IMG/VR virus record: IMGVR_UViG_3300015608_002795 | Span: 64,001-109,311 of that record | Reading direction: 5' to 3' (one strand) | DNA length: 45,311 nucleotides | Origin: a virus | Taxonomy: Duplodnaviria; Heunggongvirae; Uroviricota; Caudoviricetes | In this document: in pieces, positions 1-45,153 of the stretch | Numbering within the stretch: position 1 is the stretch's first letter | Layout of the letters: each line of letters opens with the position of its first letter | The notes under the pieces: model-generated | Databases searched by the model: none | The model's input: the letters and a program-made list of their open reading frames with translations, nothing else | Told to the model about the DNA's origin: nothing | Position numbers and translations under genes: made by a program

Positions 1-1
1 T

Positions 2-2396: not shown

Positions 2397-2398
2397 AA

Positions 2399-3097
2399 AT
2401 GGGACCATTAATAAGTATATGTATACCAACATATGAAATGAAAGGTAAAGGAGCAGAATTTCTGGAGTTTTCATTTACAAGAATGTTTCTTCAGACTTAT
2501 GAAAACTTTGAGGTAATTGTATCCGATCATAGTACAACACATGTAATTGAAGATGTTTGTAAAAGATGGCAAGGTAAATTAAATATTAAACATTTCTATA
2601 ATGAAGATGGGAGAGGAATGTTTCCAAATAATACTAATAATGCAATAAGACAGGCAAAGGGTGATATTATTAAAATTCTTTGTCAGGATGACTTTTTATT
2701 CGATGATAAATCATTGGAAAATCTTGTCTTTCAATTCACAAATAATGACAAATATTGGTTAGTTACTGCTTGTTGTCATACTGAAGATGGATATAATTTA
2801 TATAGACCGTTTTATCCAGTATATCATGACAACATACAATATGGTGAAAACACTATAAGCTCACCAAGTGTATTGATGTTTAAAAATGAAAATGTCATGC
2901 CATTTGATGAAAATCTATTTTGGTTAGTGGATGTCGACTATTATAAAATGCTATTTGATAGATATGGACTTCCTGGAATTTGTAATGTAATTACTGTGGT
3001 TAATAGAGAAGATGAGAGCACAAGAGTCTCCAACACAGTAACTTCTGAAGTTATGAATAAGGAGCTTCAATATGTAATTAATAAATATAAAAAATAA
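2399..3097 (+). CDS. Family 2 glycosyltransferase
   Basis: ISICIPTYE, FEVIVSDHS, NNAIRQAKGDIIKILCQDD. Confidence 0.9.
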   Translation: MGPLISICIPTYEMKGKGAEFLEFSFTRMFLQTYENFEVIVSDHSTTHVIEDVCKRWQGKLNIKHFYNEDGRGMFPNNTNNAIRQAKGDIIKILCQDDFLFDDKSLENLVFQFTNNDKYWLVTACCHTEDGYNLYRPFYPVYHDNIQYGENTISSPSVLMFKNENVMPFDENLFWLVDVDYYKMLFDRYGLPGICNVITVVNREDESTRVSNTVTSEVMNKELQYVINKYKK

Positions 3098-3104
3098 ATA
3101 AAAA

Positions 3105-4007
3105 ATGAAAATTTACGATTGCTTTCAATTCTTCAACGAATTTGATGTATTGGATATAAGACTAAGTACACTATATGATCATGTGGACTACTTTGTAATA
3201 AGTGAAACAAATAAAACACACTCAAATATGGACAAACCATATTATTTTGATGAAAATAAACATTTATTTGAAAAGTATATGGATAAAATTATTCATATAA
3301 AAGAATGCTATCCAGATGATATACTAAAGTTTAAAAAGAAGGAAGAAAGTAACCCCTACAATGATATGTATAATATCATATCTGACATTTATGATAAAGA
3401 AGAACACGAAAACGAGTTAAAGAGGTGGCCTAATTTTTGTAGAGATTACTTACAAAGAGAGTATATAAAATTGGGTTTAATCAATTGTGAAGACGATGAT
3501 TTAATTATGGTATCTGATTTGGATGAAATTTCAAACCCTGATGTTATTGACCAAATAAGAGAAGGCAATATTGTTGATAAATGTCTAATGCAAAATTGTT
3601 ATTACTACTATGTAAATATGGTTGCTCATACTAATTGGTATGGTGCTTATGTGGTAAAATATTCAAAGACAAAGGATGTCTCATTAACACATCTTAGAAA
3701 TGAGAGCAAAAGTTATGAGAGAATAGATAATGCTGGGTGGCACTTTAGCTTTGTTGGTGGACCAGATAGAGTTAGAAATAAAATACAAAGTTATTCACAC
3801 CAAGAGTTTAACAATCCATACATTTTAAATGGAATTGAGCAAAGAATTAATAATAAACAAGATCCATTTGGAAGAGGAAATCACACTTATAATAATCCAA
3901 TACAAACATTTTATTATGAAAATATGTTAGTTACAGATATGAGTGAGTGCCCAGAAAAAATGGTTAATCTTATAAAAGAAAAATATAGTTATTTAATAAG
4001 AGAATAA
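3105..4007 (+). CDS. GT17-family (MGAT3-like beta-1,4-GlcNAc transferase) glycosyltransferase
   Basis: IYDCFQFFNEFDVLDIRL, VDYFVISE, QRE, MVSDLDEI, AGWHFSF, KIQSYSHQE. Confidence 0.85.
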   Translation: MKIYDCFQFFNEFDVLDIRLSTLYDHVDYFVISETNKTHSNMDKPYYFDENKHLFEKYMDKIIHIKECYPDDILKFKKKEESNPYNDMYNIISDIYDKEEHENELKRWPNFCRDYLQREYIKLGLINCEDDDLIMVSDLDEISNPDVIDQIREGNIVDKCLMQNCYYYYVNMVAHTNWYGAYVVKYSKTKDVSLTHLRNESKSYERIDNAGWHFSFVGGPDRVRNKIQSYSHQEFNNPYILNGIEQRINNKQDPFGRGNHTYNNPIQTFYYENMLVTDMSECPEKMVNLIKEKYSYLIRE

Positions 4008-4008
4008 T

Positions 4009-4986
4009 ATGAATTTATTAGACCCAACATACATAAGAGATATATGTGACTATTCATTTGGGGATCACCCTGGATTAGGATTATTTGGTGGATATATGAA
4101 ACCAGCTAATATTAATAACCAAGAGTTTATGAATAAGTACAGAGATATTGTCGGTAAGAAATCCTACATGACCTTGTTCATTGATAGTATCCGACTTTAT
4201 AATAGATCAGGTATAAAATATTCGGCTGTGGAACTCGTTAATGAAGAATCTAGAAGATACAAGGACAAAGTCGTGGTTGAATATTTTAGAGAAAATGACT
4301 TATTAGATTTATGCTCTAAGCTACCTGATATGAAGTTTGTTATATTTTCATTTTTTGATGATACACCAATTGATGAGTTTATTTTTGATAAAATACCAGA
4401 GAATGTTGTCGGTGTTTATGCGGCAAATGCAATCTCATTTGGAGGCAAAGTAACACCTGTCCCATATGGAATTCAACGAAAGTTGTATCCATGGGATAAC
4501 AGACATGATATATTATCAACGTTCATTAATCAAGAATATCCACCAACTAAATTACTATATATGAGTCATAATGTTGGACATAATCCAAATCGAATTAAAA
4601 TAAATGAATATTTTTCAGATAAACCTTGGGCTACAATTAAAAATCCAGCCGGAACTAATGAATATGTAAATTATTTATTAGATATTAAAAATCATAAGTT
4701 CATGATTTGTCCTGACGGAAACGCTATTGGATGTGAATGTCACAGAGATTGGGAAGTATTATATATGAGAAGAGTTCCTGTTGTTATCCGTTCGAAGTAT
4801 TTAGAGAAAATATTTGAAGGATTTCCTGTACTTATGGTTAACGATTTTACGGAGGTAACTGCGGAATTATTAGAAAATAATGATCATTTATATCAACAGG
4901 CACTGAATTTAGATATGTCTAAATTAGATATCAAGGTAATATATGATAATATCATATCTGAAGTAGAAGAAAAAATTAAAAATTAA
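4009..4986 (+). CDS. Exostosin/GT47-like putative glycosyltransferase
   Basis: KFMICPDGNAIGCECHRDWEVLYMRRVPVV resembles the KFxxxPxGNGxDCHRxWEAL...GxIPI motif. Confidence 0.65.
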   Translation: MNLLDPTYIRDICDYSFGDHPGLGLFGGYMKPANINNQEFMNKYRDIVGKKSYMTLFIDSIRLYNRSGIKYSAVELVNEESRRYKDKVVVEYFRENDLLDLCSKLPDMKFVIFSFFDDTPIDEFIFDKIPENVVGVYAANAISFGGKVTPVPYGIQRKLYPWDNRHDILSTFINQEYPPTKLLYMSHNVGHNPNRIKINEYFSDKPWATIKNPAGTNEYVNYLLDIKNHKFMICPDGNAIGCECHRDWEVLYMRRVPVVIRSKYLEKIFEGFPVLMVNDFTEVTAELLENNDHLYQQALNLDMSKLDIKVIYDNIISEVEEKIKN

Positions 4987-4987
4987 A

Positions 4988-5596
4988 ATGATAATAGATT
5001 ACAAAAAAGTAAGGAGTATAAGTACTGAATCATACAAAAAGGACTTTAACTATGATGGATATACTGCACCATTAGACAATACTCATCAGTTTGCTGATGA
5101 GAGAGGAAATAATGGTGAACATTATAAGTTGTTAACATACCTATCAAATATGTTTGACGGAATTACAATATTAGATGTTGGTACAAATTGGGGAGATTCT
5201 GCTATTTCTTTATCACAAAATAAAAATAATAAAGTAATATCCTATGATATTATGCATATATGGAACTTTCCATTTGCTAAAGACTATACAAATTTAGAAT
5301 TTAAATTAATGGATATCAATGATGAGGATCCAGAGATAATTAAGTCAGCTAAATTAATATTCTTTGATATTGCTCATGACGGTGTTCAGGAACAAAAATT
5401 TACTGATATGCTGGAGAGAATAGGATATAAAGGATATGTTCTTTGTGATGATATAAACCTACCATGGGCACCATGGATGAAAGTTTGGTGGGACGGATTG
5501 CAAGTAGAAAAATACGACATAACCGACATTGGTCATACTTGGGGAACTGGATTACTTAATTATTACCAAGATGGTAATATACAAATAATTAAATAA
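4988..5596 (+). CDS. Class I SAM-dependent methyltransferase (Methyltransf_24-like)
   Basis: ILDVGTNWGDSA, IFFDIAHDG, VLCDDI. Confidence 0.75.
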   Translation: MIIDYKKVRSISTESYKKDFNYDGYTAPLDNTHQFADERGNNGEHYKLLTYLSNMFDGITILDVGTNWGDSAISLSQNKNNKVISYDIMHIWNFPFAKDYTNLEFKLMDINDEDPEIIKSAKLIFFDIAHDGVQEQKFTDMLERIGYKGYVLCDDINLPWAPWMKVWWDGLQVEKYDITDIGHTWGTGLLNYYQDGNIQIIK

Positions 5597-5597
5597 G

Positions 5598-6254
5598 ATG
5601 ATAGATTTAAAAAATGTAACGATAGTTTCTGTAGCTTGTTTGCGAGTACCGGAAACAATTAAAGCGATACATAAATCAATGTATGGTATAAATTTTGGTG
5701 CATCCAAGTTATTGACATCTGAAGATTTTACAGATGATACTATTGAGATTATTAAGATTGATAGATTGGATTACGAAAATTATAATAGATTTGTAGTTTT
5801 TGAACTCTATAAGTACATAGATACTGATTATGTATTAATTGTTCAAGATGATGGATATGTAATTAATCCTGAGATGTGGAGAGATGAATTCTTTAACTAT
5901 GACTATATAGGAGCACCTTGGATGTTACCACCACCAAACGATTCTGTAAGTTTTAGAGATCCGTTTGGTAATATAATGAGAGTTGGTAATGGCGGTTTTT
6001 CGTTTAGAACTAAAAAACTATTAGAAATGCCGACTAAATTAAACTTAGAATGGAGATCATATTATGGTTATTTTAATGAGGATGGATTTTTTACCTGCCA
6101 CAACAGACATTTAATTGAAGCTCAAGGATGTGTATATGCTCCAATTGATGTGGCTAAATACTTCTCACACGAAGCAGAAATACCTGAAATACAGGGAATA
6201 ACTCCTTTTGGATTTCATGGAAAATGGTCAAAGTATAATGTAAATAATGAATAG
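5598..6254 (+). CDS. DUF5672-like putative glycosyltransferase (copy 1)
   Basis: LIVQDDGYV, YDYIGAPW, VGNGGFSFR, NEDGFF, AKYFSHE, PFGFHG. Confidence 0.8.
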   Translation: MIDLKNVTIVSVACLRVPETIKAIHKSMYGINFGASKLLTSEDFTDDTIEIIKIDRLDYENYNRFVVFELYKYIDTDYVLIVQDDGYVINPEMWRDEFFNYDYIGAPWMLPPPNDSVSFRDPFGNIMRVGNGGFSFRTKKLLEMPTKLNLEWRSYYGYFNEDGFFTCHNRHLIEAQGCVYAPIDVAKYFSHEAEIPEIQGITPFGFHGKWSKYNVNNE

Positions 6255-6939
6255 TCCATTTTTTGTAATAACCGATTATAATCACCTAACACAAGATTTA
6301 TCTCAATCATGGGTATCAAAATATGCAAAAGATTACTTAATCTATGATAGAGCAGATAGATGGGAAGAAACTGATAAAATAAAAAAGCAAATAAACGTAG
6401 GTGAGAATATTTATGATATGGCTGATTTTATAGTTAACAACTATCATAACTTACCTGAGATAATGGTTTTTGTAAAAGCAGATGTTATCCCAAGACATTG
6501 TGGTGAAGAAAAATTTGAAAAGATAATTAAAAATAATTTCTATACACCAATAGAAAATTATATAAGAACAACTCCATTATACACTCCGGGATCATATGCA
6601 TACGTGGATGAGAGTGATGGTTATTGGGAAAATATTTTTGAGGTGGATTATTTATTACAAGTAGTACATCCCGGAAAATACTTTCACAGATTTAGAGATT
6701 TTTTTAATGAAGTGTTCGAAAACGCAAATTTTGGAACACACATAAGATTTACACCAGGAGGATGTCATTTAATAACAAAAAAAGATGTATTAAAATATAA
6801 TAAGGAATTCTACGAATTAATTAAAAAAATCACCTCATGGGATATAAGACCGGGTGAAGTATTTATTTTAGAAAGGGGCATCTATACTATTTTCAATAAT
6901 AACTTTATTATTAAAGATAAATATAAAAATAAAAACTAA
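6247..6939 (+). CDS. DUF3431-like protein associated with glycan clusters
   Basis: YLIYDR, NVGEN...FIVNNYHNLPEIMVF, FTPGG..LITKK, LERG resemble the DUF3431 pattern. Confidence 0.55.
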   Translation: MNSPFFVITDYNHLTQDLSQSWVSKYAKDYLIYDRADRWEETDKIKKQINVGENIYDMADFIVNNYHNLPEIMVFVKADVIPRHCGEEKFEKIIKNNFYTPIENYIRTTPLYTPGSYAYVDESDGYWENIFEVDYLLQVVHPGKYFHRFRDFFNEVFENANFGTHIRFTPGGCHLITKKDVLKYNKEFYELIKKITSWDIRPGEVFILERGIYTIFNNNFIIKDKYKNKN

Positions 6940-6940
6940 T

Positions 6941-7870
6941 ATGTTAACAGCAAATTTAACTGGTAACTTAGGTAATCATATGTGGAACTATGTCATATGT
7001 AGACTTGTTGCTGAACAACTAGGTTATGAGTGGGGAGTAAATCCGACCCCATCACATGATTATTTACACGGACAAAGTCAAATGTACTTCATGAATATTG
7101 ATTATGGAAAGGAGGTTAAAATAATCGGACAGAATTCTATGGGATTAGCTATGTTTGAAGGAGTTCCAAATGAATATTATGATGAATTAAAAGTACACAA
7201 TACACCAACTGATAGTTGTTGTATTAACATGTATGATCCAAATGTATTTAATATACAAGATAATACAATGGTTCATATTAAATCACAATCAGAAGACTAT
7301 CTAATAGATAGAAGAGAAGACGTATTACAATGGTTCAGTTTTAAAGATGAATATGTTGATAAGTATAAACAAATGTTAGTTGAAAAAGGACTAACACTTG
7401 ATGATAATCTATGTGTTATAAACTTTAGGGGTGGTGAATGGAATTCTGTTCCAAATCTAATAGCATCCCCAAAATACTGGAGAGATTGTATGGATCATAT
7501 GTTATCAATAAATCCTCAAATTAAATTTATAATAATAACAGATGATACTGCTACTGCTCAAAGGTATATACCAGGTGTTCCATGTTTTCATGTTGAAATA
7601 GGTTTTGACTTCTATGTTGTTAGAAACTCTAAATACCTAATACTAGCAAATTCTTCTTTTAGTTGGTGGGGTGGATGGTTAAATCAAAGTGCTAAACTAA
7701 TATTAGGTCCTAAATATTGGGGAAGGTCTAACTTAAGTAATGGATATTGGTCTTTAGGTGATTTGTACTCCCGATTTTTTAAATATATGGATAGGGACGG
7801 AAATATATCAGATTTTGAAACCTGTAAGAGTGAAGCTTTGAATTTTTACAAAAATAACGGGTTGATTTAA
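6941..7870 (+). CDS. GT11 alpha-1,2-fucosyltransferase-like (copy 1)
   Basis: GNLGNHMW, INFRGGE (HxRxGD position), IITDD, LILANSSFSWWGGWL. Confidence 0.9.
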   Translation: MLTANLTGNLGNHMWNYVICRLVAEQLGYEWGVNPTPSHDYLHGQSQMYFMNIDYGKEVKIIGQNSMGLAMFEGVPNEYYDELKVHNTPTDSCCINMYDPNVFNIQDNTMVHIKSQSEDYLIDRREDVLQWFSFKDEYVDKYKQMLVEKGLTLDDNLCVINFRGGEWNSVPNLIASPKYWRDCMDHMLSINPQIKFIIITDDTATAQRYIPGVPCFHVEIGFDFYVVRNSKYLILANSSFSWWGGWLNQSAKLILGPKYWGRSNLSNGYWSLGDLYSRFFKYMDRDGNISDFETCKSEALNFYKNNGLI

Positions 7871-7925
7871 GCTACTTAAAAAACAATGATTAAGTATTTT
7901 AATAGAATATAAAAAATAGATCAAG

Positions 7926-10496
7926 ATGAAAAAAATAGTTATAACAGGAGGAATTGGTTACATAGGTACTGAGTTATGTAAAATATATTCAGGTGAAGCT
8001 AGATATAAAGAAATAGTTGTAATGGATTCCAGATTTGTATCCGAGAGAGTTACTCAAATAACTGACTGGGGTATGAAGTTTATTCATGGTAGCATCTTAA
8101 ATGACAAATTAATGGAAGATGTCTTAAAGGACGCAGATTTAGTTTATCATTTAGCTGGTGTTACTGATGTTGCTTATACTAAAACACAATCTAATGTAGA
8201 AAAAGATAAAGAAATCAGAGAGTATGGTATAAACGGAACTAGAAATGTTATTAAATATGTTCCCAAACATTGTAGAATTCTATTCCCATCTACACACGTT
8301 GTATATGAAGGATTGAGTGAAACTAAATTTGACATCGAAGAATCTTTTGAAACTAGTCCTGTATTAACCTATTCAACTGGTAAGGTTCAATCTGAAATTG
8401 ATTTACAAAATTCAGATTTAAATTATGTTATCGTAAGACTTGGATCTGTTTATGGGTATTCTACCGATACAATGAGGATAAACATCATGCCTAATCTTTT
8501 TTCTAAAATTGCGTCACAAAATGGAACAATTAGTTTGTTCTCTGGTGGTGTTCAATATAAAAGTTTAGTCAATCTAATAGACGTTGTAAGAGCAATGAAA
8601 TTTTTGGGAGAATCAGAAATATCAAGAGAAACTTTTCATTTAACAAATGAAAATATGACTATTAAAGAGGTTGCTAACCTATGTAAAAAATTTAATCCTA
8701 ATGTTAATATAATTGAAACAAGTGATGAAATTCCAAACCTTGGATATACACTATCAAATAAAAAATTATTATCCACCGGATTTAAATTTCTTTATAATAT
8801 CGAAAGTAGTATTAAAGAAATGATTGAAAAATGGACACTAAAGCAACATCCAGAAGATTTAGAATATATTATACGAGGTAGTAAAGAATATATTGATGCT
8901 AGAGGTAAAATTTCTAATTTTGAATTAACAGAGCCAATTAATTTAATTGGATACATTGAGTCAAAAGCAGGATCTGTTAGAGCTAATCATTATCATCCAA
9001 TACAGGAGCAAAAATGTTTATTAATAACTGGTAAATATATTAGCGTAACAAAAGATCTTTCTGTTCCAAATGCTGAAATAGAAACTAGAATTATCAAAGC
9101 TGGTGACTTATCTGTAATTAGGCCGAATGTTGCACATACTATGGTATTTTTAGAGGATTCTATTTTCCTAAATTTAGTTAGAGGAGAAAGAGAGCATGAA
9201 AACTATGGAATTACACATACGATACCTTATGTGCTGGTTGATGAAGATTTTAGAAAAAATCTAATTCAAAACTATAAGACAGAATGTAGAGCATGTGGAA
9301 ATGATGATCTTACAGATATTGTTTCTTTAGGTATGTCCCCATTAGCCAATAATCTACTAGATAGTTTAGATGAAAAAGCAGAACTATTTCCTTTAGAAAT
9401 AAAGCATTGTGAAAAATGTCATAATGTCCAGTTGTCATATGTTGTTCCTCCTGGAAAGATGTTTGATAATTACCTATATGTTTCTTCAACTGCAGCTTCT
9501 TTTAGAAAACACTTTGAATTAGCGGCGGATCAATATATTAAAGAATTTAATCTAAATCAAAACTCATTAGTTGTTGATATTGGAAGTAATGATGGTATAT
9601 TTCTTAAACCATTGAAGGAAAAAGGAGTGAAAGTTGTTGGTGTTGAGCCAGCTAAAAACGTGGCTAAAATTGCTAACGACAATGGTGTCGAGACCATTAA
9701 TGCGTATTTTGATGAGGACTCTGTAGTTAGAATCACAGGAAAATACGGAAAAGCTGATTTGATTACAGCATCTAACGTATTTGCTCACTCAGACGTTTTA
9801 ATTGATATTACAAAAAATGCTTTCTCTTTATTAAAGGAGGACGGTAGTTTTATTGTTGAAGTGCAATATCTTTTGGATACTATTAAGGATATGACATTTG
9901 ATAATATTTATCATGAGCATGTTAATTATTGGTCAGTTACTTCTATAAATAATTTCTTTAAAAACTTAGGATTATGTGTTTATAAAGTAGAGCACATAAA
10001 TACACACGGCGGGTCAATTAGAGTATTTATTAAGAAAAATAAATCAAACATAGAGAAAAGTATTGACTTATTTTTAAGTCAAGAGAAAGAAGTAGGAATG
10101 ACAGATCATGATATCTATAAAAAGTTTGCACAGAAATTAAAAGTCATAAAAGAAAATGTAAATTCTAATATAAATATATTGAAGTCTAAATTTGGTAAAA
10201 TTGCAGCGTATGGTTCGCCTGCGAAAGCAACAACCGCACTTAATTACTTTGGAATAGACAATAATATTATTGAATACACAATTGAGGATAATAATTTAAA
10301 AGTTGGTAAAATTATACCAGGAGTAAATATACCAATTAGAAGTAAGGACTATTGCTTTGAAAATTTACCTAATGTTATAATTGTATTAGCTTGGAATTTT
10401 TTTGAAGATATTAAAAGAAATAATAAGGAATTAATAGACTGTGGTGTGATATTTATGTCTATTAAAGATTTACAAAATGGTACTATAAACGTATAA
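7926..10496 (+). CDS. Three-domain fusion: NAD-dependent epimerase/dehydratase + cupin (sugar epimerase/isomerase-like) + NDP-hexose C-methyltransferase
   Basis: ITGGIGYIG and YSTGK (SDR); DARGKI, VRANHYHPIQEQ and AHTMVFLED (cupin); CRACG, LGMSPLANN, CEKCHNVQL, VDIGSNDG, IYHEH, THGGSIR and YGSPAKA (C-MTase). Confidence 0.9.
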   Translation: MKKIVITGGIGYIGTELCKIYSGEARYKEIVVMDSRFVSERVTQITDWGMKFIHGSILNDKLMEDVLKDADLVYHLAGVTDVAYTKTQSNVEKDKEIREYGINGTRNVIKYVPKHCRILFPSTHVVYEGLSETKFDIEESFETSPVLTYSTGKVQSEIDLQNSDLNYVIVRLGSVYGYSTDTMRINIMPNLFSKIASQNGTISLFSGGVQYKSLVNLIDVVRAMKFLGESEISRETFHLTNENMTIKEVANLCKKFNPNVNIIETSDEIPNLGYTLSNKKLLSTGFKFLYNIESSIKEMIEKWTLKQHPEDLEYIIRGSKEYIDARGKISNFELTEPINLIGYIESKAGSVRANHYHPIQEQKCLLITGKYISVTKDLSVPNAEIETRIIKAGDLSVIRPNVAHTMVFLEDSIFLNLVRGEREHENYGITHTIPYVLVDEDFRKNLIQNYKTECRACGNDDLTDIVSLGMSPLANNLLDSLDEKAELFPLEIKHCEKCHNVQLSYVVPPGKMFDNYLYVSSTAASFRKHFELAADQYIKEFNLNQNSLVVDIGSNDGIFLKPLKEKGVKVVGVEPAKNVAKIANDNGVETINAYFDEDSVVRITGKYGKADLITASNVFAHSDVLIDITKNAFSLLKEDGSFIVEVQYLLDTIKDMTFDNIYHEHVNYWSVTSINNFFKNLGLCVYKVEHINTHGGSIRVFIKKNKSNIEKSIDLFLSQEKEVGMTDHDIYKKFAQKLKVIKENVNSNINILKSKFGKIAAYGSPAKATTALNYFGIDNNIIEYTIEDNNLKVGKIIPGVNIPIRSKDYCFENLPNVIIVLAWNFFEDIKRNNKELIDCGVIFMSIKDLQNGTINV

Positions 10497-10513
10497 AAAT
10501 AAAATAAAAAAAC

Positions 10514-11089
10514 ATGATTAGATTTAACATCATTACAGAAGATTCAGTTGACCATTGGCCACATATAGACTTAAATGGTAAAGTTTTACTAGATTTAGGA
10601 TGTGGAAGAGCGGTTGCACATATTGATGAGTTTCAACAAAGTCCAATTTTCTTAGGTGAAAGTGGGGCTAAAAAAGTAATAGGGGTCGATGGAAACCCAG
10701 ATGGTGGACCACTTATAAATGCTTGGAATGGCGAACCAAGTGAAATTGAGAGATTGAAAAGAATTGTAGAAGAAAAGGGTATCAATAAAAATGGTAAATA
10801 CACATTTATATGGAAGATGATTCAAACACCAGAGGACTTAAAAACTTTAATATCAAATAATGGAATCACAGCAATTAAATGTGATATTGAAGGATATGAG
10901 ACGAATTTCTACACATTAACAAAAGAAGATATGAATACTGTTGAGGTATTTGCCTTAGAATACCACACATATGATATCTTGGATAGATTTAGAGAAAAAT
11001 TTGAGGAATGGGGGTTCACAGTTTATGCGGAAGGTAAATTCACTTACGTAGATGCACCACAAGCGGGTGTTTTATTAGCAAAAAAATAA
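10514..11089 (+). CDS. SAM-dependent methyltransferase-like protein (FkbM-like)
   Basis: LLDLGCG, VIGVD, IKCDIEGYE. Confidence 0.6.
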   Translation: MIRFNIITEDSVDHWPHIDLNGKVLLDLGCGRAVAHIDEFQQSPIFLGESGAKKVIGVDGNPDGGPLINAWNGEPSEIERLKRIVEEKGINKNGKYTFIWKMIQTPEDLKTLISNNGITAIKCDIEGYETNFYTLTKEDMNTVEVFALEYHTYDILDRFREKFEEWGFTVYAEGKFTYVDAPQAGVLLAKK

Positions 11090-11097
11090 ATATAGTT

Positions 11098-11709
11098 ATG
11101 GAATTAAAAGAAGCTTGGGAAATATCAAGAAAGTTTATTACAGAATATACCGGAAAAGAACCAGGTACAATTGGTGAGAGAAATACAACACAATATGACG
11201 TTGATAAGGGAAGCGTGCATAGTTATCTTGAGACCTACCATGACCATTTTAATAAATATTTAGGTAGACCTATTAATATTCTCGAAATTGGAATTTCGGG
11301 AGGATGGAGCCTATATATGTGGAAACAATATTTTGGAAAAAGTAGCAATGTTGTTGGTATTGATATTGATCCATATAATTTAATTTGGAAAGATGAGAAT
11401 AAAGAAGTAAAAATGATATTTTCTGATATCAATGATATGGATAGAATTAGCTCAGAGCTTGGTGATATGAGATTTGATATAATCATTGATGATGGTAGTC
11501 ATGTAACAGAAGATATGATAAATACATTTTATTTCTTATTTGGTAGATTAAATGAGGGTGGTACTTATGTCATGGAAGATGTTGATGGAAACTATCCTGA
11601 TAGAGTCCAATCAATAATGGATAAACTTTCAGAACACTCTCCGGTGTTAGTAGATTTAAGAAAGGTTAAAGAAAGATATGATGATATACTAATCATATTT
11701 AAAAAATAA
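11098..11709 (+). CDS. Class I SAM-dependent O-methyltransferase
   Basis: HSYLETY, ILEIGISGGWS, VVGIDID, FDIIIDDGSH, LNEGGTYVMED. Confidence 0.85.
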   Translation: MELKEAWEISRKFITEYTGKEPGTIGERNTTQYDVDKGSVHSYLETYHDHFNKYLGRPINILEIGISGGWSLYMWKQYFGKSSNVVGIDIDPYNLIWKDENKEVKMIFSDINDMDRISSELGDMRFDIIIDDGSHVTEDMINTFYFLFGRLNEGGTYVMEDVDGNYPDRVQSIMDKLSEHSPVLVDLRKVKERYDDILIIFKK

Positions 11710-11716
11710 AAGATAA

Positions 11717-12970
11717 ATGATGAAGATAGGATTTATAGGACTCGGCAAATTAGGATTACCTTGTGCACTAGCCATCGAACAAAAAGGGCACAAGATTTAT
11801 GGATATGATATCAATCCATCGGTTAAAGACATTTTAGATGAAAAAAAACTTCCGTATAGAGAAGAAGGTGCTCAAGAATTATTAGATAATCACAATATAA
11901 AATGGGGAACAGCTTCAGAAGTAATATCTAATTCAGATATTATATTTGTTCCGATTCAGACACCACACCATCCAAAGTATGAGGGGTCAACAAGGATACC
12001 TGAAGAAAGAATAGACTTTGATTATACTTGGTTAAAAAATGGTATGAAATTAATCTCTGATGAAGTTGAGAAAATTGGAACTGATAAAATTGTAGTTATT
12101 ATATCAACTGTTTTACCAGGTACTATTAGAAATGAGATTAAACCATTGTTAAGTAATCATATTAAGCTATGTTATAATCCATTTTTTATTGCTATGGGTA
12201 CAACAATTAGAGATTTTACATCTCCTGAGTTTGTTCTATTTGGTGTAGATGATGATGAAGCCTACGAAGTAGTTAAAAAATTCTACTCAACAATACATAG
12301 TAAACCAGTGTATAAATGTACACTTGAAGAAGCCGAAATGATAAAAGTTACTTATAACACCTATATAACAATGAAGGTTTGCTTAGCAAATACTGTTATG
12401 GAATTATCACATAAACTTGAGAATATAAATTGTGATAATGTTATGAAGGGGTTATTCTTAGCAAATGAAAGGTTAATAAGTCCTAAATATTTATTAGGTG
12501 GAATGGGAGATGGTGGTGGTTGTCATCCTAGAGATAACATAGCCCTTTCTTGGTTAGCAAGAAAAGTTGACTTAAGTTTTGATTGGTATGATAACCTAAT
12601 GAATTGCCGGGAAATGCAAACTGAGTGGTTAGGCGATATAATAATTGAAGAAAGAGAAAAAAATAATTTGCCAATAATTATACTTGGTAAAACATTTAAA
12701 AAAGAAACTAATCTTATATTAGGAAGTCCGTCAATACTATTAAAGAACATTTTAGAAGAAAAGGGAATTAAATTAGAAATGTATGATCCTTGGATTGATA
12801 ATGAGGAAGCTCCTTTAAATAGACCTAGTATATTTTTCATTGGTACGAATCATGATATTTTTTTAGATTATAAATTTCCAGTAGGTTCGACGGTAATTGA
12901 TCCTTGGAGATTTATTAAAGAACAAACAGGTGTTAGATTAATAAAAATAGGAAACTCTACAAAAGATTAA
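11717..12970 (+). CDS. ugd: UDP-glucose/GDP-mannose 6-dehydrogenase family protein
   Basis: IGFIGLGKLG, FVPIQTP, ISTVLPGT, YNPFF, AEMIKVTYN, GGGCHPRD (catalytic Cys), LGKTFK. Confidence 0.88.
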   Translation: MMKIGFIGLGKLGLPCALAIEQKGHKIYGYDINPSVKDILDEKKLPYREEGAQELLDNHNIKWGTASEVISNSDIIFVPIQTPHHPKYEGSTRIPEERIDFDYTWLKNGMKLISDEVEKIGTDKIVVIISTVLPGTIRNEIKPLLSNHIKLCYNPFFIAMGTTIRDFTSPEFVLFGVDDDEAYEVVKKFYSTIHSKPVYKCTLEEAEMIKVTYNTYITMKVCLANTVMELSHKLENINCDNVMKGLFLANERLISPKYLLGGMGDGGGCHPRDNIALSWLARKVDLSFDWYDNLMNCREMQTEWLGDIIIEEREKNNLPIIILGKTFKKETNLILGSPSILLKNILEEKGIKLEMYDPWIDNEEAPLNRPSIFFIGTNHDIFLDYKFPVGSTVIDPWRFIKEQTGVRLIKIGNSTKD

Positions 12971-12971
12971 T

Positions 12972-13904
12972 ATGAATATTTTAGTAACTGGTGGTGCAGG
13001 ATTTTTCGGATCTAAATTGGCCGAAAAACTATTAGAAAAAGGATACAATGTGACCGTATATGATAAATTGATGTATGATAATAAGGTATCTGAAAAATTT
13101 ACAAGTAACAAAAATTATAGGTTGATTGTTGGTGATGTAACAGACCATCCTAAATTAGAGCATGTAATAATGAATAATGACATTGTTGTTCATTTAGCAG
13201 CACTGGTAGGTGAGCCTGTATGTAAAAGAAATAAGGATATCATTTATGATATAAATACTTTATCAACACAATTTATATCAGATGTTTGTAAAAACAATAA
13301 TAAGCAACTTGTGTTTTTAAGCACTTGTTCAAACTATGGTAAAAATAGTGATATTGTAAATGAAAAATCAGAATTAAATCCATTAGGACTATATTCTGAT
13401 TCTAAAATCAAATCTGAAAATTATATAATAGATAACTTAGAGTCACATCTCATTTTAAGATGTGCTACACTATTTGGAATTTCTCATAGAATGAGAATTG
13501 ATCTTACTATAAATCAATTCATATTTGAAGGTATTAGAGATGGGTACATCGGTATTTTTGGTGAAATGACATGGAGGCCATTCTTATATGTTGATGATGC
13601 TTGTAATATGATAATTTTAGCAGTTGAAAATAAGTTACAAGGAGTTTATAACCTTGGAGATGATTCACTAAACTTCACAAAAAGAGATATAGTTGATAAT
13701 TTGAAGAAATGTGGAATGAACTTTGATATAAAGTTCGTAGACTTTGATGATCCAAGAGATTATAGAGTTGATTTTTCAAAGATTAAGTCCGCTCTAAATT
13801 ACACTATACAATTTCCTTTGGATAAAGGAATAGAATGTGTAAGGGAATACATGATAAATAATTGGGATTCCTTATCTAAGGATCTTACAATTACTAATAA
13901 TTAA
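12972..13904 (+). CDS. NAD-dependent epimerase/dehydratase (extended SDR)
   Basis: ILVTGGAGFFG, VVHLAALVG, FLSTCSNYG, LYSDSK, WRPFLYVDD. Confidence 0.9.
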   Translation: MNILVTGGAGFFGSKLAEKLLEKGYNVTVYDKLMYDNKVSEKFTSNKNYRLIVGDVTDHPKLEHVIMNNDIVVHLAALVGEPVCKRNKDIIYDINTLSTQFISDVCKNNNKQLVFLSTCSNYGKNSDIVNEKSELNPLGLYSDSKIKSENYIIDNLESHLILRCATLFGISHRMRIDLTINQFIFEGIRDGYIGIFGEMTWRPFLYVDDACNMIILAVENKLQGVYNLGDDSLNFTKRDIVDNLKKCGMNFDIKFVDFDDPRDYRVDFSKIKSALNYTIQFPLDKGIECVREYMINNWDSLSKDLTITNN

Positions 13905-13913
13905 AAATATTTT

Positions 13914-14693
13914 ATGATACACGGATCATTCGGAGGCAGAATGGGAAACCAGATGTTTCAATATGCAATAGCTCGTATAATAGCAGAAAAAAATGGATAT
14001 AAATTTTATCTTCCAAATGTTGGTGAACCCCCTTTTCCACATCCTGAAGATCCAAATCATCATCTATATAACTACTTTCCTAATTTAGATCGTGGAGAAA
14101 TAGATGGTGGATTATTATATCAGTATCAAGAAAATCCTCAACAAATATTTGATCCAAATATTTTTAGTATTCCTAATTTTACAAGAATATATGGATACTA
14201 TCAAACTGAAAAATATTTTGACGGATTTGAAGATAAATTAAAGGAGTGGTTTAGGTTAGATATGGATAATGTAACAAAAGGACTATTGGAAAGATATCCG
14301 GTCGAGGATTATTGTTATATACATTTTAGAGTTCATGTATTTGGTGAGGGACAAACTTATATTTCACTTAAATTTTATTTAGATGCTATTGAAAAAGTTA
14401 AAGAAATAAATCCTAATATCAAAATATTAGTAATCACAGAAGATGTAGATATTACAAAAAATGTATTTAAAGATGTAGAGTGTGAAGTTATATCTAATGA
14501 TATGATGGTTGATTATAAACTATTATTTTATTCTAAATACTGTATTATATCACCTTCTACCTTCTCTTGGTGGGCCGCTTGGCTCAGTGATAAATATATC
14601 ACGGTAGCTCCTGAAAATTGGATTTACTATGATAAACCAGAAAATGGATGCTTCCCGGCAGATGTTAAAAGTAATAAGTTTATATATGTCTAA
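13914..14693 (+). CDS. GT11 alpha-1,2-fucosyltransferase-like (copy 2)
   Basis: GRMGNQMFQYA, GYYQTEKYF, IHFR, STFSWWAAWL. Confidence 0.9.
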   Translation: MIHGSFGGRMGNQMFQYAIARIIAEKNGYKFYLPNVGEPPFPHPEDPNHHLYNYFPNLDRGEIDGGLLYQYQENPQQIFDPNIFSIPNFTRIYGYYQTEKYFDGFEDKLKEWFRLDMDNVTKGLLERYPVEDYCYIHFRVHVFGEGQTYISLKFYLDAIEKVKEINPNIKILVITEDVDITKNVFKDVECEVISNDMMVDYKLLFYSKYCIISPSTFSWWAAWLSDKYITVAPENWIYYDKPENGCFPADVKSNKFIYV

Positions 14694-15387
14694 AATAGAT
14701 TTACCAAATATTACATTAGTTAGTATAACCTCTATTAGGTTAAATACCACAGTCAAAGCACTTAAAAAGTCGATGAGTGGTATTAATTTTGGATCGGTTA
14801 AACTATTTACTGATGTTGATGTCGTTGATAATGAAATCGAGGTTGTTAAAGTTCCAAAAATGGATATTATTGAATATAACAGATTTGTCATCTATGAATT
14901 ACATAAGTATATAGATACCGATTTTGCATTACAGATACAAGATGATGGATATGTAGTAAATCCTGATATGTGGAGAGATGATTTTTTACATTATGATTAT
15001 ATAGGAGCTCCTTGGGGGTTCACTTGTTTCTATGATAAGTATGGTCAACAAATAAAAGTCGGAAATGGAATTTCGATTAGGAGTAAAAGATTAATGGAGT
15101 TACCAACCTTAAAAAATATGCCATGGCATCCACATGATGGAAATTATAATGAGGATGCTCAAATATGTATTTGGAATAGAAGTCTGTTTCTTGATAATGG
15201 TATGACATTTGCACCATTTGAATTGGCAAAATACTTCTCACATGAGGAGAAACTAATTGAGTCTTTTAAAGACGGCAAAAGGACGCTTATAACACCACAA
15301 GGCGTAGAGTATGGTGATATCAAGCCATTTTGCTTTCATAATCTTTTGGGTGGAGAAAATAACGCACAATATAAAATATATGAATAA
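14686..15387 (+). CDS. DUF5672-like putative glycosyltransferase (copy 2); start moved to ATG 14686
   Basis: IQDDGYV, YDYIGAPW, VGNG, NEDAQI, AKYFSHE. The N-terminus aligns with copy 1 from ATG 14686, which overlaps the upstream TAA. Confidence 0.8.
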   Translation: MSKIDLPNITLVSITSIRLNTTVKALKKSMSGINFGSVKLFTDVDVVDNEIEVVKVPKMDIIEYNRFVIYELHKYIDTDFALQIQDDGYVVNPDMWRDDFLHYDYIGAPWGFTCFYDKYGQQIKVGNGISIRSKRLMELPTLKNMPWHPHDGNYNEDAQICIWNRSLFLDNGMTFAPFELAKYFSHEEKLIESFKDGKRTLITPQGVEYGDIKPFCFHNLLGGENNAQYKIYE

Positions 15388-16144
15388 AATAATTGTTGGA
15401 TATACTGGTTTAGTTGGTCAAACATTATTAGATAATATAAAGTTTGACTATTTTTTTAATAGTTCAAATATTAATGAATTTGAGTCAATTGTTAATGATG
15501 GTGATGAATTAGTATTAACTTGCCTATCCTCTAATAAAAGAATAGTTACTCAAAATGTTAAACAAGATTTAGATAATATTAACAATATTATAAATATTCT
15601 TTCTAGAAAGAAATATTCTAACATCAAACTTATATCAACAGTAGACGTTTATAGTGACTCACCAAAGGGTAGTAACGAAGACTATATACCAAACATATTT
15701 AAACTTGGATACGGATCAAATAGATATCTATTTGAGATGATGATACGTGAGTTTGTTAAGTGTGATGATTTAAAAATATTTAGACTAGCTGCTTTGTTTA
15801 ATAAAAAAATAAAGAAAAACGTACTTTATGATCTATTAAATGGTACACCATTTGAAATAAATGAGAATTCTACTTTTCAATGGTATAATTTGGATAACCT
15901 ATTTTCGGATATTGAGTATCTATCTAATAAATATTCAGATCAAAAGGTATTTAATTTATTTAATGAACCAATAGAAACAGTTGACCTAATAAACCTTTTT
16001 GGTAAAACAGATTGTAAAATTATCAAGGGAGATAGAATGGATTACAATTATAAAACTAAATTTTCAAATAGTGGATATTTAAAACAACAAGATGAAGTTT
16101 TAATAGAATTAAAAGAATTTATAGAAAAATATGATAATATCTAA
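15380..16144 (+). CDS. Atypical NAD(P)-binding SDR/epimerase-like protein; start moved to ATG 15380
   Basis: IVGYTGLVG, LISTVDVY, YGSNR, IFRLAALF. Confidence 0.7.
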   Translation: MNKIIVGYTGLVGQTLLDNIKFDYFFNSSNINEFESIVNDGDELVLTCLSSNKRIVTQNVKQDLDNINNIINILSRKKYSNIKLISTVDVYSDSPKGSNEDYIPNIFKLGYGSNRYLFEMMIREFVKCDDLKIFRLAALFNKKIKKNVLYDLLNGTPFEINENSTFQWYNLDNLFSDIEYLSNKYSDQKVFNLFNEPIETVDLINLFGKTDCKIIKGDRMDYNYKTKFSNSGYLKQQDEVLIELKEFIEKYDNI

Positions 16145-16913
16145 ATTACAAGGCGGGTTAGGAAACCAACTATTTCAATGGGCAGCGGCTCGATCATATT
16201 CAGATGTTCATAATTGTGAACATAAATTTGACACATCTTTTTATCCTTATCAAAATTTTAGGCAACTTGAATTATATAATTTTGAAAACCTAACGTTTAG
16301 TACTATAAATAGATTTGATATTGGAAAACCAATTATAGAAATAAATGATAATTATCACTTTCAAGAATTACCATATGTTAATGACTGTGTAGTTTTTTTA
16401 AATGGATTTTGGCAAAGTGAAAAATATTTTATTAAATCACAAAATATAATACGAAAAGAACTATCACCTGATGAAGAAACATTAAGTAGGCTAAAGAGGA
16501 CACCATTATTGGAAACCAACACACTATCCTTGCATATAAGGAGAACGGATTACGTAAGTTCTAATGGATATCATCCAGTTCAACCAATAAGTTATTACGA
16601 AGAAGCTATAAACATAATCGGAGACTATGACTTTATATTTGTTTTTTCTGACGATATTGAATGGTGTATGAATAATTTGAAATTCAAAAATATGATATTT
16701 ATGGGGGGATCTACTGGATTTTCTAATGTAGAAGAAATGTGGTTAATGTCTATGTGTAAAAATCATATAATAGCTAATAGTTCATTTAGTTGGTGGGGAG
16801 CTTGGTTAAATAGTAACCCAAATAAAAAGGTAGTGGCTCCATTAAATTGGTTTGGTAGTCATACAAATATAAATGATTCAGATATTGTTCCTGACTCATG
16901 GATAAAAATTTAA
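16131..16913 (+). CDS. GT11 alpha-1,2-fucosyltransferase-like (copy 3, WbsJ/FutC-type)
   Basis: GGLGNQLFQ, GFWQSEKYF, LHIRRTDY, FSDDIEW, HIIANSSFSWWGAWL, IVPDSWIKI. Confidence 0.93.
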   Translation: MIISKLQGGLGNQLFQWAAARSYSDVHNCEHKFDTSFYPYQNFRQLELYNFENLTFSTINRFDIGKPIIEINDNYHFQELPYVNDCVVFLNGFWQSEKYFIKSQNIIRKELSPDEETLSRLKRTPLLETNTLSLHIRRTDYVSSNGYHPVQPISYYEEAINIIGDYDFIFVFSDDIEWCMNNLKFKNMIFMGGSTGFSNVEEMWLMSMCKNHIIANSSFSWWGAWLNSNPNKKVVAPLNWFGSHTNINDSDIVPDSWIKI

Positions 16914-16919
16914 AATAAT

Positions 16920-17798
16920 ATGTCAATAAAAGTAGCCTTCGCAGATTTTTGGGGTGGGTTTAACTATAATCCAGATATAAATGTTAATAGTAAAGAGATG
17001 TATTATGGGGATAATACATTATATGACATTCTATCCGAAAGGTATGATATAGAAACTTCTACCAACCCAGATGTTTTAATCTACAGCGTTTTTGGAAATT
17101 CACATACACAATATAGTTGTAAAAAGGTATTTTATACTGGAGAAAATATGAGACCTAATTACAACCAATGTGATTACTCATTGACATTTGATTATCTAGA
17201 TGATGAAAGAAACTATAGATTCCCACTATCAGCAATTACCTTATATGAGTCTGGTATAAGAGATAAGTTTCCAAAAGAAATTGATTTTGATAAAATAAAA
17301 AAAGAAAAGACAAAGTTCTGCAATTTTGTATTTTCAAATCCAAATGCACAATTAAGAAATCAACTATTTTATGAATTATCAAAATATAAGCAAGTTGATT
17401 CTGGTGGACGAGCACTTAATAATATTGGGTATGCCGTTAGTGATAAATTAGAATTTATTAACAATTATAAATTTACCATTTGCTTTGAAAATAGTGAATA
17501 TCCAGGATATACAACTGAAAAATTAGTGCATCCTAAGTTAAAAAATAGTATTCCTATATATTGGGGAAATCCAAGAGTTGGTGAGGATTGGAATACAAAG
17601 TCATTTATCAATGCTTATGATTTTAAAGATATCAACTCTCTCATTGATTATATTAAAGAGGTAGATAATGATGATAATTTATATGAGAATATTTTAAAGG
17701 AAAGTCATTTTTTAGATGATAAATTACCACATGATTTAGATACTAATAATTTATTAGATTTTTTTGAAAAAATATTTAAAAATGAAAAAAAGCATTGA
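16920..17798 (+). CDS. GT10 alpha-1,3/4-fucosyltransferase-like
   Basis: FYTGEN, KFCNFVFSNP, VDSGG, YKFTICFENS..PGYTTEK, IPIYWG. Confidence 0.92.
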   Translation: MSIKVAFADFWGGFNYNPDINVNSKEMYYGDNTLYDILSERYDIETSTNPDVLIYSVFGNSHTQYSCKKVFYTGENMRPNYNQCDYSLTFDYLDDERNYRFPLSAITLYESGIRDKFPKEIDFDKIKKEKTKFCNFVFSNPNAQLRNQLFYELSKYKQVDSGGRALNNIGYAVSDKLEFINNYKFTICFENSEYPGYTTEKLVHPKLKNSIPIYWGNPRVGEDWNTKSFINAYDFKDINSLIDYIKEVDNDDNLYENILKESHFLDDKLPHDLDTNNLLDFFEKIFKNEKKH

Positions 17799-17910
17799 AG
17801 ATAAATTAATGGAGATTCTTTCTGAAGAACTATCAGCAAGCATTGATAGGGAAATAATGAAGGGGTTGATCCCTTCTATAAGAAAGGAAAAAATTAAAAA
17901 TGTAATTAAA
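17782..17910 (+). CDS. 42-aa micro-protein (not in ORF track) with a gp23 major-capsid-like helix and a C-terminal RKEKIKK tag
   Basis: Manual translation: MKKSIEDKLMEILSEELSASIDREIMKGLIPSIRKEKIKKCN*. The ATG overlaps the GT10 end, and the ORF fills the gap up to the convergent gene. Confidence 0.65.
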
Positions 17911-17914
17911 AAGA

Positions 17915-18514
17915 TTAAATCTTCTGAATGATTCTTGGAACGGTTTCAAGTTCCATTACTTTAGATTTATTAAGTAAAAATTCAATTTGTACAAAGTTAA
18001 ATTTAAAGGTTAACGTAAATTCTTTAGGATTAACTTTTTGTTGTGAGTAATCAAAATTAACCTCGCTTAGTGATAGAGCGATAATTTCAAAAAATTTAAT
18101 TACATAAATAGCATCACGATGTATATCAACAGCAGTTATTGTAAATGGATTAATATACATGTTAATAACATCTAAATAGTGCTTCTGAAAGATATCAAAT
18201 ACTAACCAATAATTTAAGTCAGAATCAACTGATCTAAAAGTAACTTGAAACTCTCTGGTAGAAACAATATCATTAACGTTTGTAGCAGGTTTATAAGACC
18301 TTTTTTTACCTCGTATTAAAGATTGCTCAGGTGTTTGAATACTAAGTCCTGGGAAATTAACAGATTTAATTGTAGAGTTAATATAATCAATTACGTTCTC
18401 ATACTGCACCCAATTCTTTTCTAGAATTGGAGTATAGGTGTTAATAATTTCCTGGGGTAAGAAATCACTTGGTAGATTAAATATAAACTGCGACGATTGA
18501 CTCGATAACCTCAT
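17915..18514 (-). CDS. T4 gp3-like tail tube terminator/tail completion protein (tail-tube fold)
   Basis: SVNFPGLS..TP, FQVTF..DSDLNY, SLSEVNFDYS and FTLTFKFN resemble the gp3 family; lies in a late operon. Confidence 0.6.
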   Translation of the reverse strand: MRLSSQSSQFIFNLPSDFLPQEIINTYTPILEKNWVQYENVIDYINSTIKSVNFPGLSIQTPEQSLIRGKKRSYKPATNVNDIVSTREFQVTFRSVDSDLNYWLVFDIFQKHYLDVINMYINPFTITAVDIHRDAIYVIKFFEIIALSLSEVNFDYSQQKVNPKEFTLTFKFNFVQIEFLLNKSKVMELETVPRIIQKI

Positions 18515-31269: not shown

Positions 31270-31928
31270 ATAGTAGAGAATCAATAGAAGTTTTGGATAC
31301 AGTATCGGATATACTATTAGAATTAAATGATCAATTTGATATCGAGATAATGTTTGGATATGAAACTGTCCTAAATGTAGAGTCAAATTATAATAAAATT
31401 ATAAGTATTATCAGAGATTTTGAAAAGAATAAGAGAGAAATTCCAAAACTGGAATTTAGAATTATTACAAAAGATGGGATATCATTTAGTAATTTTAGTA
31501 ATGCCTATAATAATAAAGAAAGACCAGGTTATATAAGAAGAAAAAAAATGATAGCAGAGACAGCTTCAACGATTGTTAATAAACTCGATGCAATAAGTAA
31601 TAGAATGTCATCTATTTTAGATAAATATAAAATAAAAATAAATGATATAAAATATGATCAATATCCATTTCTATTAGTCGCCACTTCATTCGGACTTATT
31701 AAGGTGCCATTATTTGAAAAACATCAATTTGAAGAAGATGATATTACCAGGATGAGGAGAAATAACATCTCAATAAAATCATATGAAATAGATAAAGAAA
31801 AAATTGATAATCATAAAGATATACAATTGCTCTATGCTTATGTTCCTTTTGAAATATCAAAGGATAAACCTAAACCTACTAATAAGAAATTCAAGAATAA
31901 AATTAAAAAATTTATTGATTTCCTATGA
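31266..31928 (+). CDS. Hypothetical protein (VSDILLELND motif)
   Basis: ATGA overlap with the upstream gene. Confidence 0.6.
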   Translation: MNSRESIEVLDTVSDILLELNDQFDIEIMFGYETVLNVESNYNKIISIIRDFEKNKREIPKLEFRIITKDGISFSNFSNAYNNKERPGYIRRKKMIAETASTIVNKLDAISNRMSSILDKYKIKINDIKYDQYPFLLVATSFGLIKVPLFEKHQFEEDDITRMRRNNISIKSYEIDKEKIDNHKDIQLLYAYVPFEISKDKPKPTNKKFKNKIKKFIDFL

Positions 31929-32304
31929 TCTCATTTATTTTATTATCTCTCATCCTTTTGTGTGCTTCGCCGTCATATTTAATATAAGCTCCCCTCACAT
32001 ATTTAGTACCATTCATTTCTTGAAATCCATATAAAACATAACAATTAGGAAATGGATCAGATTTTATAGACTCTAAAGTGGATGTATTACATGATATTGA
32101 CCTTGAAAAAGCTTTATCATCTTCTATGTAGTATTGTATAAACGTTGGCTGGTTGGTAAAATACCTCAGTGATGGTAGTTCAGATAAATATTTTATATAC
32201 TTATCATCTTCTCCTATAAACCTTTGCTTTAATATATCATATTTTTCAATAGAGCTAATAGGTAGTTCAACTAAATGATTATTCATATTTATCTTATTTT
32301 GCAT
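31912..32304 (-). CDS. Hypothetical protein with C-terminal tag MRDNKINEII
   Basis: ORF track; last gene of the minus-strand run. Confidence 0.6.
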   Translation of the reverse strand: MQNKINMNNHLVELPISSIEKYDILKQRFIGEDDKYIKYLSELPSLRYFTNQPTFIQYYIEDDKAFSRSISCNTSTLESIKSDPFPNCYVLYGFQEMNGTKYVRGAYIKYDGEAHKRMRDNKINEIIGNQ

Positions 32305-40847: not shown

Positions 40848-41033
40848 ATGAAAATTTCATCTAAAAAACCTACCGTAGAAGAAGTTTATAAAAAAATGAT
40901 TCTGAACTCTTGTTATGGAAGCACCGGAATCGAACCCATTATAAACTACAAAATACACTATAAAAGAATTATTAGTCCGGGTATAGTTCTTATTAGGAAA
41001 TTTAAAATTAAAAAAATCTTATCTAAGATATGA
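40848..41033 (+). CDS. 61-aa micro-protein carrying PolB motif B (KMILNSCYG) plus tag IRKFKIKKIL
   Basis: ORF track sequence; K-x3-NS-x-YG. Confidence 0.65.
   Translation: MKISSKKPTVEEVYKKMILNSCYGSTGIEPIINYKIHYKRIISPGIVLIRKFKIKKILSKI

Positions 41034-43313: not shown

Positions 43314-45153
<1,840 letters not shown>

Follow-up and report, generated by a model that had tools for sequence, protein, structure and literature searches.

The capsid targeting sequence (CTS) of bacteriophage T4, a peptide of 10 residues, is thought to be an evolutionary device that loads varied proteins into the head, and it offers a known example of a short head-address tag that different proteins can carry (PMC9026906). 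Two small proteins of the T4 prohead core, gp67 and gp68 (80 and 141 amino acids [aa], respectively), take part in the determination of head shape (PMC9026906). Here, we describe a micro-gene, P0001, encoding a 49-aa protein in a 45,311-nucleotide (nt) stretch of DNA from a tailed phage of the class Caudoviricetes. This stretch, referred to below as the window, is the final 45 kb of a 109-kb IMG/VR record rated 39% complete (IMGVR_UViG_3300015608_002795). P0001 is a mini-protein of two modules, a capsid-derived block and a basic C-terminal motif (the tag), joined by a short linker. Our preferred reading, to which we assign a probability of about 0.4, is that this combination of a capsid-derived block and a tag acts as a head-assembly accessory addressed by the tag.

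The likeness of P0001 to described systems is partial in each case. With gp23 and gp24 (PF07068), the P0001 family shares a conserved block around a long helix. Unlike these proteins, the mini-protein covers ~30-45 of ~376 profile positions, and therefore an HK97-type fold cannot form; in addition, its C-terminal tag is foreign to gp23 and gp24, and its gene lies far from the head genes. The T4 internal proteins IPI, IPII, and IPIII and the Alt protein resemble P0001 in that a short portable peptide, the CTS, is common to many unrelated small proteins. However, T4 places its tag at the N terminus; this tag binds to the scaffold core and is removed by cleavage after L/I-x-E. The P0001 tag, by contrast, is C-terminal and basic and has no evident cleavage site. 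Furthermore, the T4 internal proteins, unlike P0001, copy no capsid blocks. The gp67 and gp68 proteins are comparable as small proteins of the prohead core, but their genes belong to the head module, and the products undergo processing by gp21. A resemblance in sequence between gp67 and part of gp23 has reportedly been described. Gene fragments linked to homing endonucleases of the Seg/Mob type are also comparable, as pieces of conserved genes lying outside their parents, and two siblings of P0001 in the window that carry blocks of family B DNA polymerase (PolB) follow a GIY-YIG/NUMOD3 gene. In contrast to such fragments, P0001 has no endonuclease neighbor, its protein sequence is conserved across hundreds of genomes, and its tag is under selection. 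A literature search revealed no description of minigenes of this type, in which each gene reproduces one conserved block of a core protein and all have a tag in common.

P0001 is a genuine gene under selection. Its frame opens with ATG at 17782 and closes with TGA at 17929-17931, and public gene callers report the identical 49-aa product on 26 contigs, plus two close variants. An earlier note on this DNA had given the gene as 17782-17910, with a 42-aa product. The start was right, but the end, the length, and the last six residues (KIKKCN) were wrong because one base had been lost in the A-run after ...RKEKIK. The C terminus of P0001 is ...KIKNVIKKIKSSE, the true frame reading ...IRKEKIKNVIKKIKSSE. 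Recoding of the TGA stop was also considered and rejected as unneeded; neighboring genes are all read through under translation table 11.

A family profile retrieved at least 579 cluster representatives at E <= 1, mostly of 75 aa. The top 120 matches all had E < 1e-22, were nearly all 73-75 aa long, and came from contigs of up to 642 kb. Thirty-six diverse members share 65% mean column identity over their full length, and the ratio of nonsynonymous to synonymous substitution rates (dN/dS) among four DNA copies was 0.15-0.37, with dS saturated. The family core, ..D.L..MLS.E...SID..IL.GLG.., leads into a basic tail ending ..INKIF; P0001 fits this pattern and is 41-54% identical to 75-aa members. 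The full 75-aa relatives also include a strand that precedes the long helix. Proteins of the window lineage (49-50 aa) are without the first ~25 residues of the family: this lineage lost the N-terminal 25 residues and retained the helix, the linker, and the tag. The nearest complete relatives are the uncultured phages LR756502 (642 kb) and LR745206 (635 kb). Conservation of the open reading frame (ORF), which the earlier note had named as a test, was thus observed in related genomes, at the same operon end.

Sequence comparison traces the first module to a single conserved block of the T4-type major capsid protein (MCP), of which it is an ancient copy. The Pfam Gp23 profile matched 36 of 36 family members tested at E <= 0.1 (best 3.9e-7), and ~15% of the family's database members carry a precomputed Gp23 match. 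The Pfam cut-off of 24.4 bits was passed by some 75-aa relatives and by a sibling block (L011, 26.3 bits). Since the record holds no capsid gene, comparison was made with the capsid proteins of relatives, in which a six-frame Gp23 search located the true capsid genes (560-571 aa). Family columns 18-56 were placed by hhalign on residues 333-371 of the clade's capsid protein (P = 1.5e-4), so that the alignment proposed in the earlier note for the phage's own capsid gene, made here with the capsid protein of the clade, falls on the homologous helix. Positions 337-373 of a hidden Markov model (HMM) of the clade's capsid protein were aligned by 35 of the 36 members, and the score of a 75-aa member against this HMM was reached by 0 of 2,000 shuffles. 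Outside its own clade, a 75-aa member gave weak tblastn matches, ~38 of 43 of which were on genes annotated as T4-type major capsid or head protein.

The block consists of a strand and a long helix with the motif ..L..L..EI...I(D/N)R.., and in longer relatives it spans Pfam Gp23 positions 162-198. Residues 5-31 of P0001 line up with residues ~345-373 of the clade MCP (Pfam Gp23 positions 170-196). The family and gp23 are conserved at the same residues; in T4 gp23 the block reads ...HGMDADAELSGILATEIMLEINREVV.... Going by the gp24 alignment, the block may be the P-domain "spine" helix of the HK97 fold. When P0001 alone was searched against Pfam, the sole match was Gp23 (E = 0.032, 14.1 bits, residues 5-31 on profile positions 170-196). 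The likeness to the conserved gp23 helix proposed in the earlier note therefore stands at the level of the family (36 of 36 members) and is borderline for the 49-aa peptide by itself. A PDB profile search with P0001 yielded nothing significant: GCN4 coiled coils (E ~0.2) ranked above T4 gp24 (E = 0.63), which aligned at its residues 198-230. A parallel coiled coil of the GCN4 type was considered as a separate candidate and rejected; the matches (E 0.2-0.6) extend over 14 residues, and the heptads break after two repeats.

The second module, too, is real and, as codon-level comparison shows, selected as protein. A motif R-x-x-K-I-x-K-I-(L/F) near the stop codon is common across the clade. The tails of P0001, of the two PolB-motif ORFs of the window, and of micro-ORFs of relatives follow R-K-x-K-I-x-K-(I/L/V)-(F/L/I), and more broadly the consensus can be written h-R-(D/E/N/K)-x-K-I-N-K-I-L, with 0-8 residues after it. 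A first tail HMM gave 13.8 bits for P0001, 17.5 for the PolB motif B peptide, and 17.1 for the motif A peptide; a second scored P0001 at 11.1 bits, 5 residues before the stop. Reversed-sequence controls at >=10 bits produced 0 matches with the first HMM and 1 with the second. In the record containing the window together with LR756502, the first HMM found 11 matches at >=10 bits, compared with 0 in reversed sequences; after one iteration there were 16 matches at >=14 bits (0 reversed), 15 of which lay within 14 residues of the stop. At conserved residues the tag codons vary synonymously, and there is no conservation past the stop; hence it is the peptide, and no DNA element, that is under selection. 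A DNA repeat, a promoter, a ribosome-binding site, and a downstream initiation region were accordingly rejected as explanations of the tag, given these synonymous codons, the lack of anything conserved past the stop, and the existence of several bearers without a downstream gene. A sliding-clamp-binding motif was likewise rejected, because the real PolB of a relative ends in a T4-like ..MDIFGGSGF.

The tag is not confined to proteins with recognizable blocks. At least 25 otherwise unrelated orphan proteins of LR756502, ranging from 49 to 242 aa, bear it (for example, those encoded at 397848-398246, 485383-485616, 323430-323636, and 90418-91146), and ten larger bearers matched no Pfam or PHROG family. 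The window, too, encodes such a protein in addition to the PolB siblings (Table 1). The presence of the tag on at least 25 unrelated proteins suggests a general address or docking motif, not a part of the capsid mimic. The string IRKEKIKK, which had been reported to recur on the PolB-motif peptides, occurs nowhere else in the 109-kb record in its exact form; the siblings are found only by the tail profile, at the scores given above, so that the sharing of a tag holds and the identity of the string does not.

P0001 is, as had been proposed, a third peptide that joins a hallmark motif to the tag, the two PolB-motif peptides being the others. The genes of these two overlap and are ordered motif B, then motif A, the reverse of the natural order. 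A GIY-YIG/NUMOD3 homing endonuclease gene (40091-40834, +) lies directly 5' of both. The motif A block of the 57-aa sibling has no Pfam support. In LR756502, a census revealed four capsid blocks (residues 32-86, 333-371, 421-451, and 513-546) present as separate minigenes with tag-like tails, the likeness being only loose for block 32-86, as well as a PolB motif A minigene. The six-frame Gp23 search of relatives also detected a separate small ORF on profile positions 222-260 (26.3 bits, above the cut-off) and another on positions 302-356 (E = 2.2e-4).

Several further genes of the relatives bear on the tagged proteins. LR756502 encodes a 707-aa ClpB/ClpC-like double-AAA ATPase with a UVR motif (440544-442667, +), and three small proteins of the same genome with tag-like tails (320919-321134, 381760-382026, and 154346-154507) resemble the UVR/M-domain or D2 of the ClpC-like ATPase. 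In the huge-phage relatives, two genes encode the family B DNA polymerase, the break falling between motifs A and B; in LR756502 these genes lie ~130 kb apart (253853-255391, +, and 120483-121907, -). The C-terminal half starts with MTRDEKIKKI..., a tag-like string that we take, from the RB69 sequence, to be homologous to a segment of the finger domain of T4-family polymerases. Lastly, a 50-aa tagged micro-protein encoded at L011 1673-1825 (G001) has a body that matches EF-hand_7 (E = 9.6e-5) and, by eye, is also similar to the motif at the N terminus of the T4 gp21 prohead protease; these are candidate parents only.

We consider it highly probable that P0001 is a real gene in which a capsid-derived block is combined with a shared tag. 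The mechanism that we propose by analogy with T4, a head-assembly accessory addressed by its tag, is tentative and falls somewhat short of even odds. It corresponds to the modulator of capsid assembly that the earlier note had offered as one possible role. In this scheme the tag would address or dock its bearers to a single common partner, much as the CTS recruits otherwise unrelated T4 proteins to the prohead core. The capsid-like helix would give P0001 affinity for the head pathway, and it would bind either the surfaces contacted by the equivalent capsid helix or the scaffold or chaperone that handles that helix. We count in favor of a link to the head the four capsid blocks that exist as tagged minigenes in LR756502.

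A number of observations weigh against this proposal. The Pfam score of P0001 (14.1 bits) lies below the Gp23 gathering cut-off of 24.4 bits, and profile searches against gp23, which the earlier note had recommended, are thus convincing for the family (best E = 3.9e-7) and not for this member. The comparison with shuffled helices divides in the same manner: 29 of 2,000 shuffles equaled the score of P0001 against the clade capsid HMM, while none equaled that of the 75-aa member. A tblastn search of phage genomes with the 49-aa peptide recovered only its two orthologues and no capsid gene, and the peptide resembles coiled coils of the GCN4 type. The tag is also found on peptides carrying PolB motifs A and B and the UVR motif, which are unrelated to heads; its position at the C terminus differs from that of the N-terminal T4 targeting sequence; and no L/I-x-E protease site precedes it in P0001, the relatives having ..GLE-PD.., with Gly at P3. 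The genes for tagged proteins occur throughout the genome without clustering near head genes, and P0001 itself lies in a sugar operon, outside the head module. We conclude from its sub-cut-off score and its coverage of less than a tenth of the fold that P0001 is not a capsid protein.

The positions of P0001, its parts, its neighbors, and the tagged proteins of the window are collected in Table 1. The window begins with a 17-kb glycan operon (1-17798, +) encoding two C-methyltransferase fusions, several epimerases/dehydratases, UDP-glucose dehydrogenase, and GT11 and GT10 fucosyltransferases. P0001 closes this operon, as originally noted; it is the last gene of this + strand operon and overlaps the GT10 stop. 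Its start sits 17 nt within the 3' end of the GT10 gene, and because of this overlap of stop and start, the two genes may be translationally coupled. P0001 is placed for co-transcription as the final gene of the glycan operon, and the hairpin past its stop is consistent with its being the final gene of the transcript. The convergent 199-aa gene appears tail-tube-like from its nearest Atlas clusters, which we regard as a lead only. The 3' ends of the two genes overlap by 17 nt, in the window and in every relative examined, and each of the convergent operons apparently terminates at a hairpin inside the last gene of the other. An Rfam search of the region identified no RNA family, and an Atlas search with a 617-aa neighbor was uninformative. 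In metatranscriptomes, the region was present in four runs with identical sequence, as long contigs that span both convergent operons at flat depth; such contigs show presence in the library and not transcription. Elsewhere, the window encodes a full DnaJ (J domain, zinc centre, and C-terminal domain; 34585-35625, -), translation initiation factor IF-3 (41374-41904, +), and adenylosuccinate synthetase (43737-45050, +).

Table 1. Location of P0001, its modules, adjacent features, and tagged proteins in the window
Feature	Position	Strand	Evidence
GT10 alpha-1,3-fucosyltransferase, upstream gene	16920-17798	+	FucT_N 1.3e-24, Glyco_transf_10 2.3e-22
Micro-gene P0001, 49 aa, last gene of the glycan operon	17782-17931	+	ORF, same product in public gene calls, relatives
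Capsid-like helix block, P0001 residues 5-31 (...EDKL..ILSEEL.ASIDREI..GL)	17794-17874	+	Profile matches
Terminator-like hairpin of the convergent tail operon, within P0001 linker codons (KGLIPS)	17859-17876	-	Same scan as for the hairpin at 17936-17955
C-terminal tag IRKEKIKNVIKKI, P0001 residues 33-45	17878-17916	+	Protein-level conservation with synonymous codon changes
Convergent 199-aa gene, tail-tube-like (a lead only)	17915-18514	-	Atlas clusters with Phage_TTP_2 / T4_gp19, scores 0.95-0.98
Terminator-like hairpin, 5 nt past the P0001 stop	17936-17955	+	Two sites found, 0.2 expected from shuffles
130-aa protein without known family, ending in the tag (...RDNKINEIIGNQ)	31912-32304	-	Tag 8.3 bits, 2 residues from the stop
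61-aa sibling, PolB motif B block then tag LIRKFKIKKILSKI	40848-41033	+	DNA_pol_B_2 E 7.5e-4; tag 17.5 bits
57-aa sibling, PolB motif A block (DFASLYPS) then tag LLRKSKTKKVLNKI	41030-41203	+	Tag 17.1 bits

Orthologues at the end of the glycan operon, which the earlier note had advised seeking, are present in both huge phages, on another IMG/VR contig, and at eight further loci. Homologous ORFs of 62-74 aa occupy the equivalent place in LR756502, LR745206, and the IMG/VR contig. Each of the eight further loci shows the gene behind sugar genes, its start overlapping the gene before it, and in a convergent arrangement with the 199-aa gene that includes the 17-nt overlap. The gene immediately upstream varies by genome and may encode GT10, an unknown 259-aa protein, UDP-galactopyranose mutase, or a 228-aa protein. 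No endonuclease gene was present within 4 kb in the window, in W01 (LR756502), W02, or G001, or at the eight further loci.

Other explanations attribute different roles to the two modules. P0001 could be a generic tagged effector, in which the helix is now a mere helical body, possibly self-associating, and the role is exerted via the tag, in host takeover or in docking to a chaperone or protease. The existence of at least 25 tagged proteins with unrelated bodies and no family agrees with this, as do the absence of the strand from the window variant and the match of its helix to GCN4-pLI over 14 residues; the DnaJ of the window (34585-35625) and the ClpC-like ATPase are candidate readers of a basic-hydrophobic C-terminal motif. 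The conserved residues of the family nevertheless coincide with those of gp23, and the same genomes preserve three further capsid blocks as tagged minigenes, a coincidence that is hard to accept, so we regard this explanation as unlikely, if worth keeping in mind. We think it similarly unlikely that the minigenes constitute a system of "block peptides," in which conserved capsid and PolB segments joined to a common tag would blind host receptors or poison the proteins of competitors while the tag recruits a shared effector such as the phage's own Clp-type unfoldase. Phages have little freedom to alter their capsid protein, DNA polymerase, and tail proteins, and it is these that many bacterial receptors sense. 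Tagged capsid and polymerase blocks might act as decoys or sponges that occupy host immune sensors without triggering them; the earlier note had proposed a capsid-epitope decoy, citing capsid-sensing defenses such as CapRel. Avs families sense capsid, tail-tube, and polymerase proteins, so that the parents of the blocks, the capsid protein and DNA polymerase, overlap the proteins sensed (PMC13581612). In addition, the blocks retained are the most conserved ones, and the canonical gp23 motif is better preserved in the mini-protein than in the phage's own capsid protein. However, the capsid sensors Avs7, Avs8, and Avs10 recognize folded cores, their activation having needed truncations to the core fold; a helix of 30-40 residues is unlikely to mimic these, and the polymerase that is sensed belongs to family A, not family B (PMC13581612). 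The tag is, moreover, common to many proteins that copy nothing. The decoy idea is rather improbable and is not favored by the evidence seen.

The position of P0001 invites the view that it is an adaptor of the glycan operon, its block bringing glycosyltransferases to the capsid protein or mimicking an acceptor site. The gene is always the last of the sugar operon, although the upstream gene differs, and its start overlaps the upstream stop. The same position can equally be described as adjoining a tail-tube gene, other tagged capsid blocks lie outside glycan operons, no glycosylation motif is evident, and the glycan may go to either the virion or the host surface; we judge the adaptor improbable. 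The slim chance that P0001 is a weapon against co-infecting relatives, a dominant-negative poison of the capsid that is perhaps handed to a Clp-type unfoldase via the tag, draws on the fact that the blocks are shared by all T4-type phages, on the divergence of the phage's own capsid helix from the canonical motif kept by the mini-protein, and on the ClpC-like ATPase encoded by a relative. This account is entirely inferential, requires that self-poisoning be avoided, and found no precedent in the literature search. A functionless relic, derived from a duplicated capsid gene or a fragment borne by a homing endonuclease, might be suspected from the location of the PolB siblings directly behind the GIY-YIG/NUMOD3 gene and from the truncation of the window copy relative to the family. 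Hundreds of conserved full-length copies, purifying selection, and fixed synteny argue against it, as do the synonymous variation of the tag and the lack of an endonuclease gene within 4 kb in any genome examined. Given this conservation, such a relic or endonuclease footprint can largely be discounted and is the least credible of these explanations.

Members of the family are at present annotated merely as hypothetical proteins or left unannotated. Candidate roles, in addition to the assembly helper that we prefer, include an address-tagged cargo, an immune decoy, and an inter-phage weapon. Whatever the role, a set of small proteins that each carry one invariant block on a common tag would be a new class of phage genes. 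The tag itself offers a handle on the orphan proteins of huge phages. A single reader protein must, in our view, exist for it, and once that protein is identified, a substantial portion of huge-phage dark matter would be linked to a pathway.

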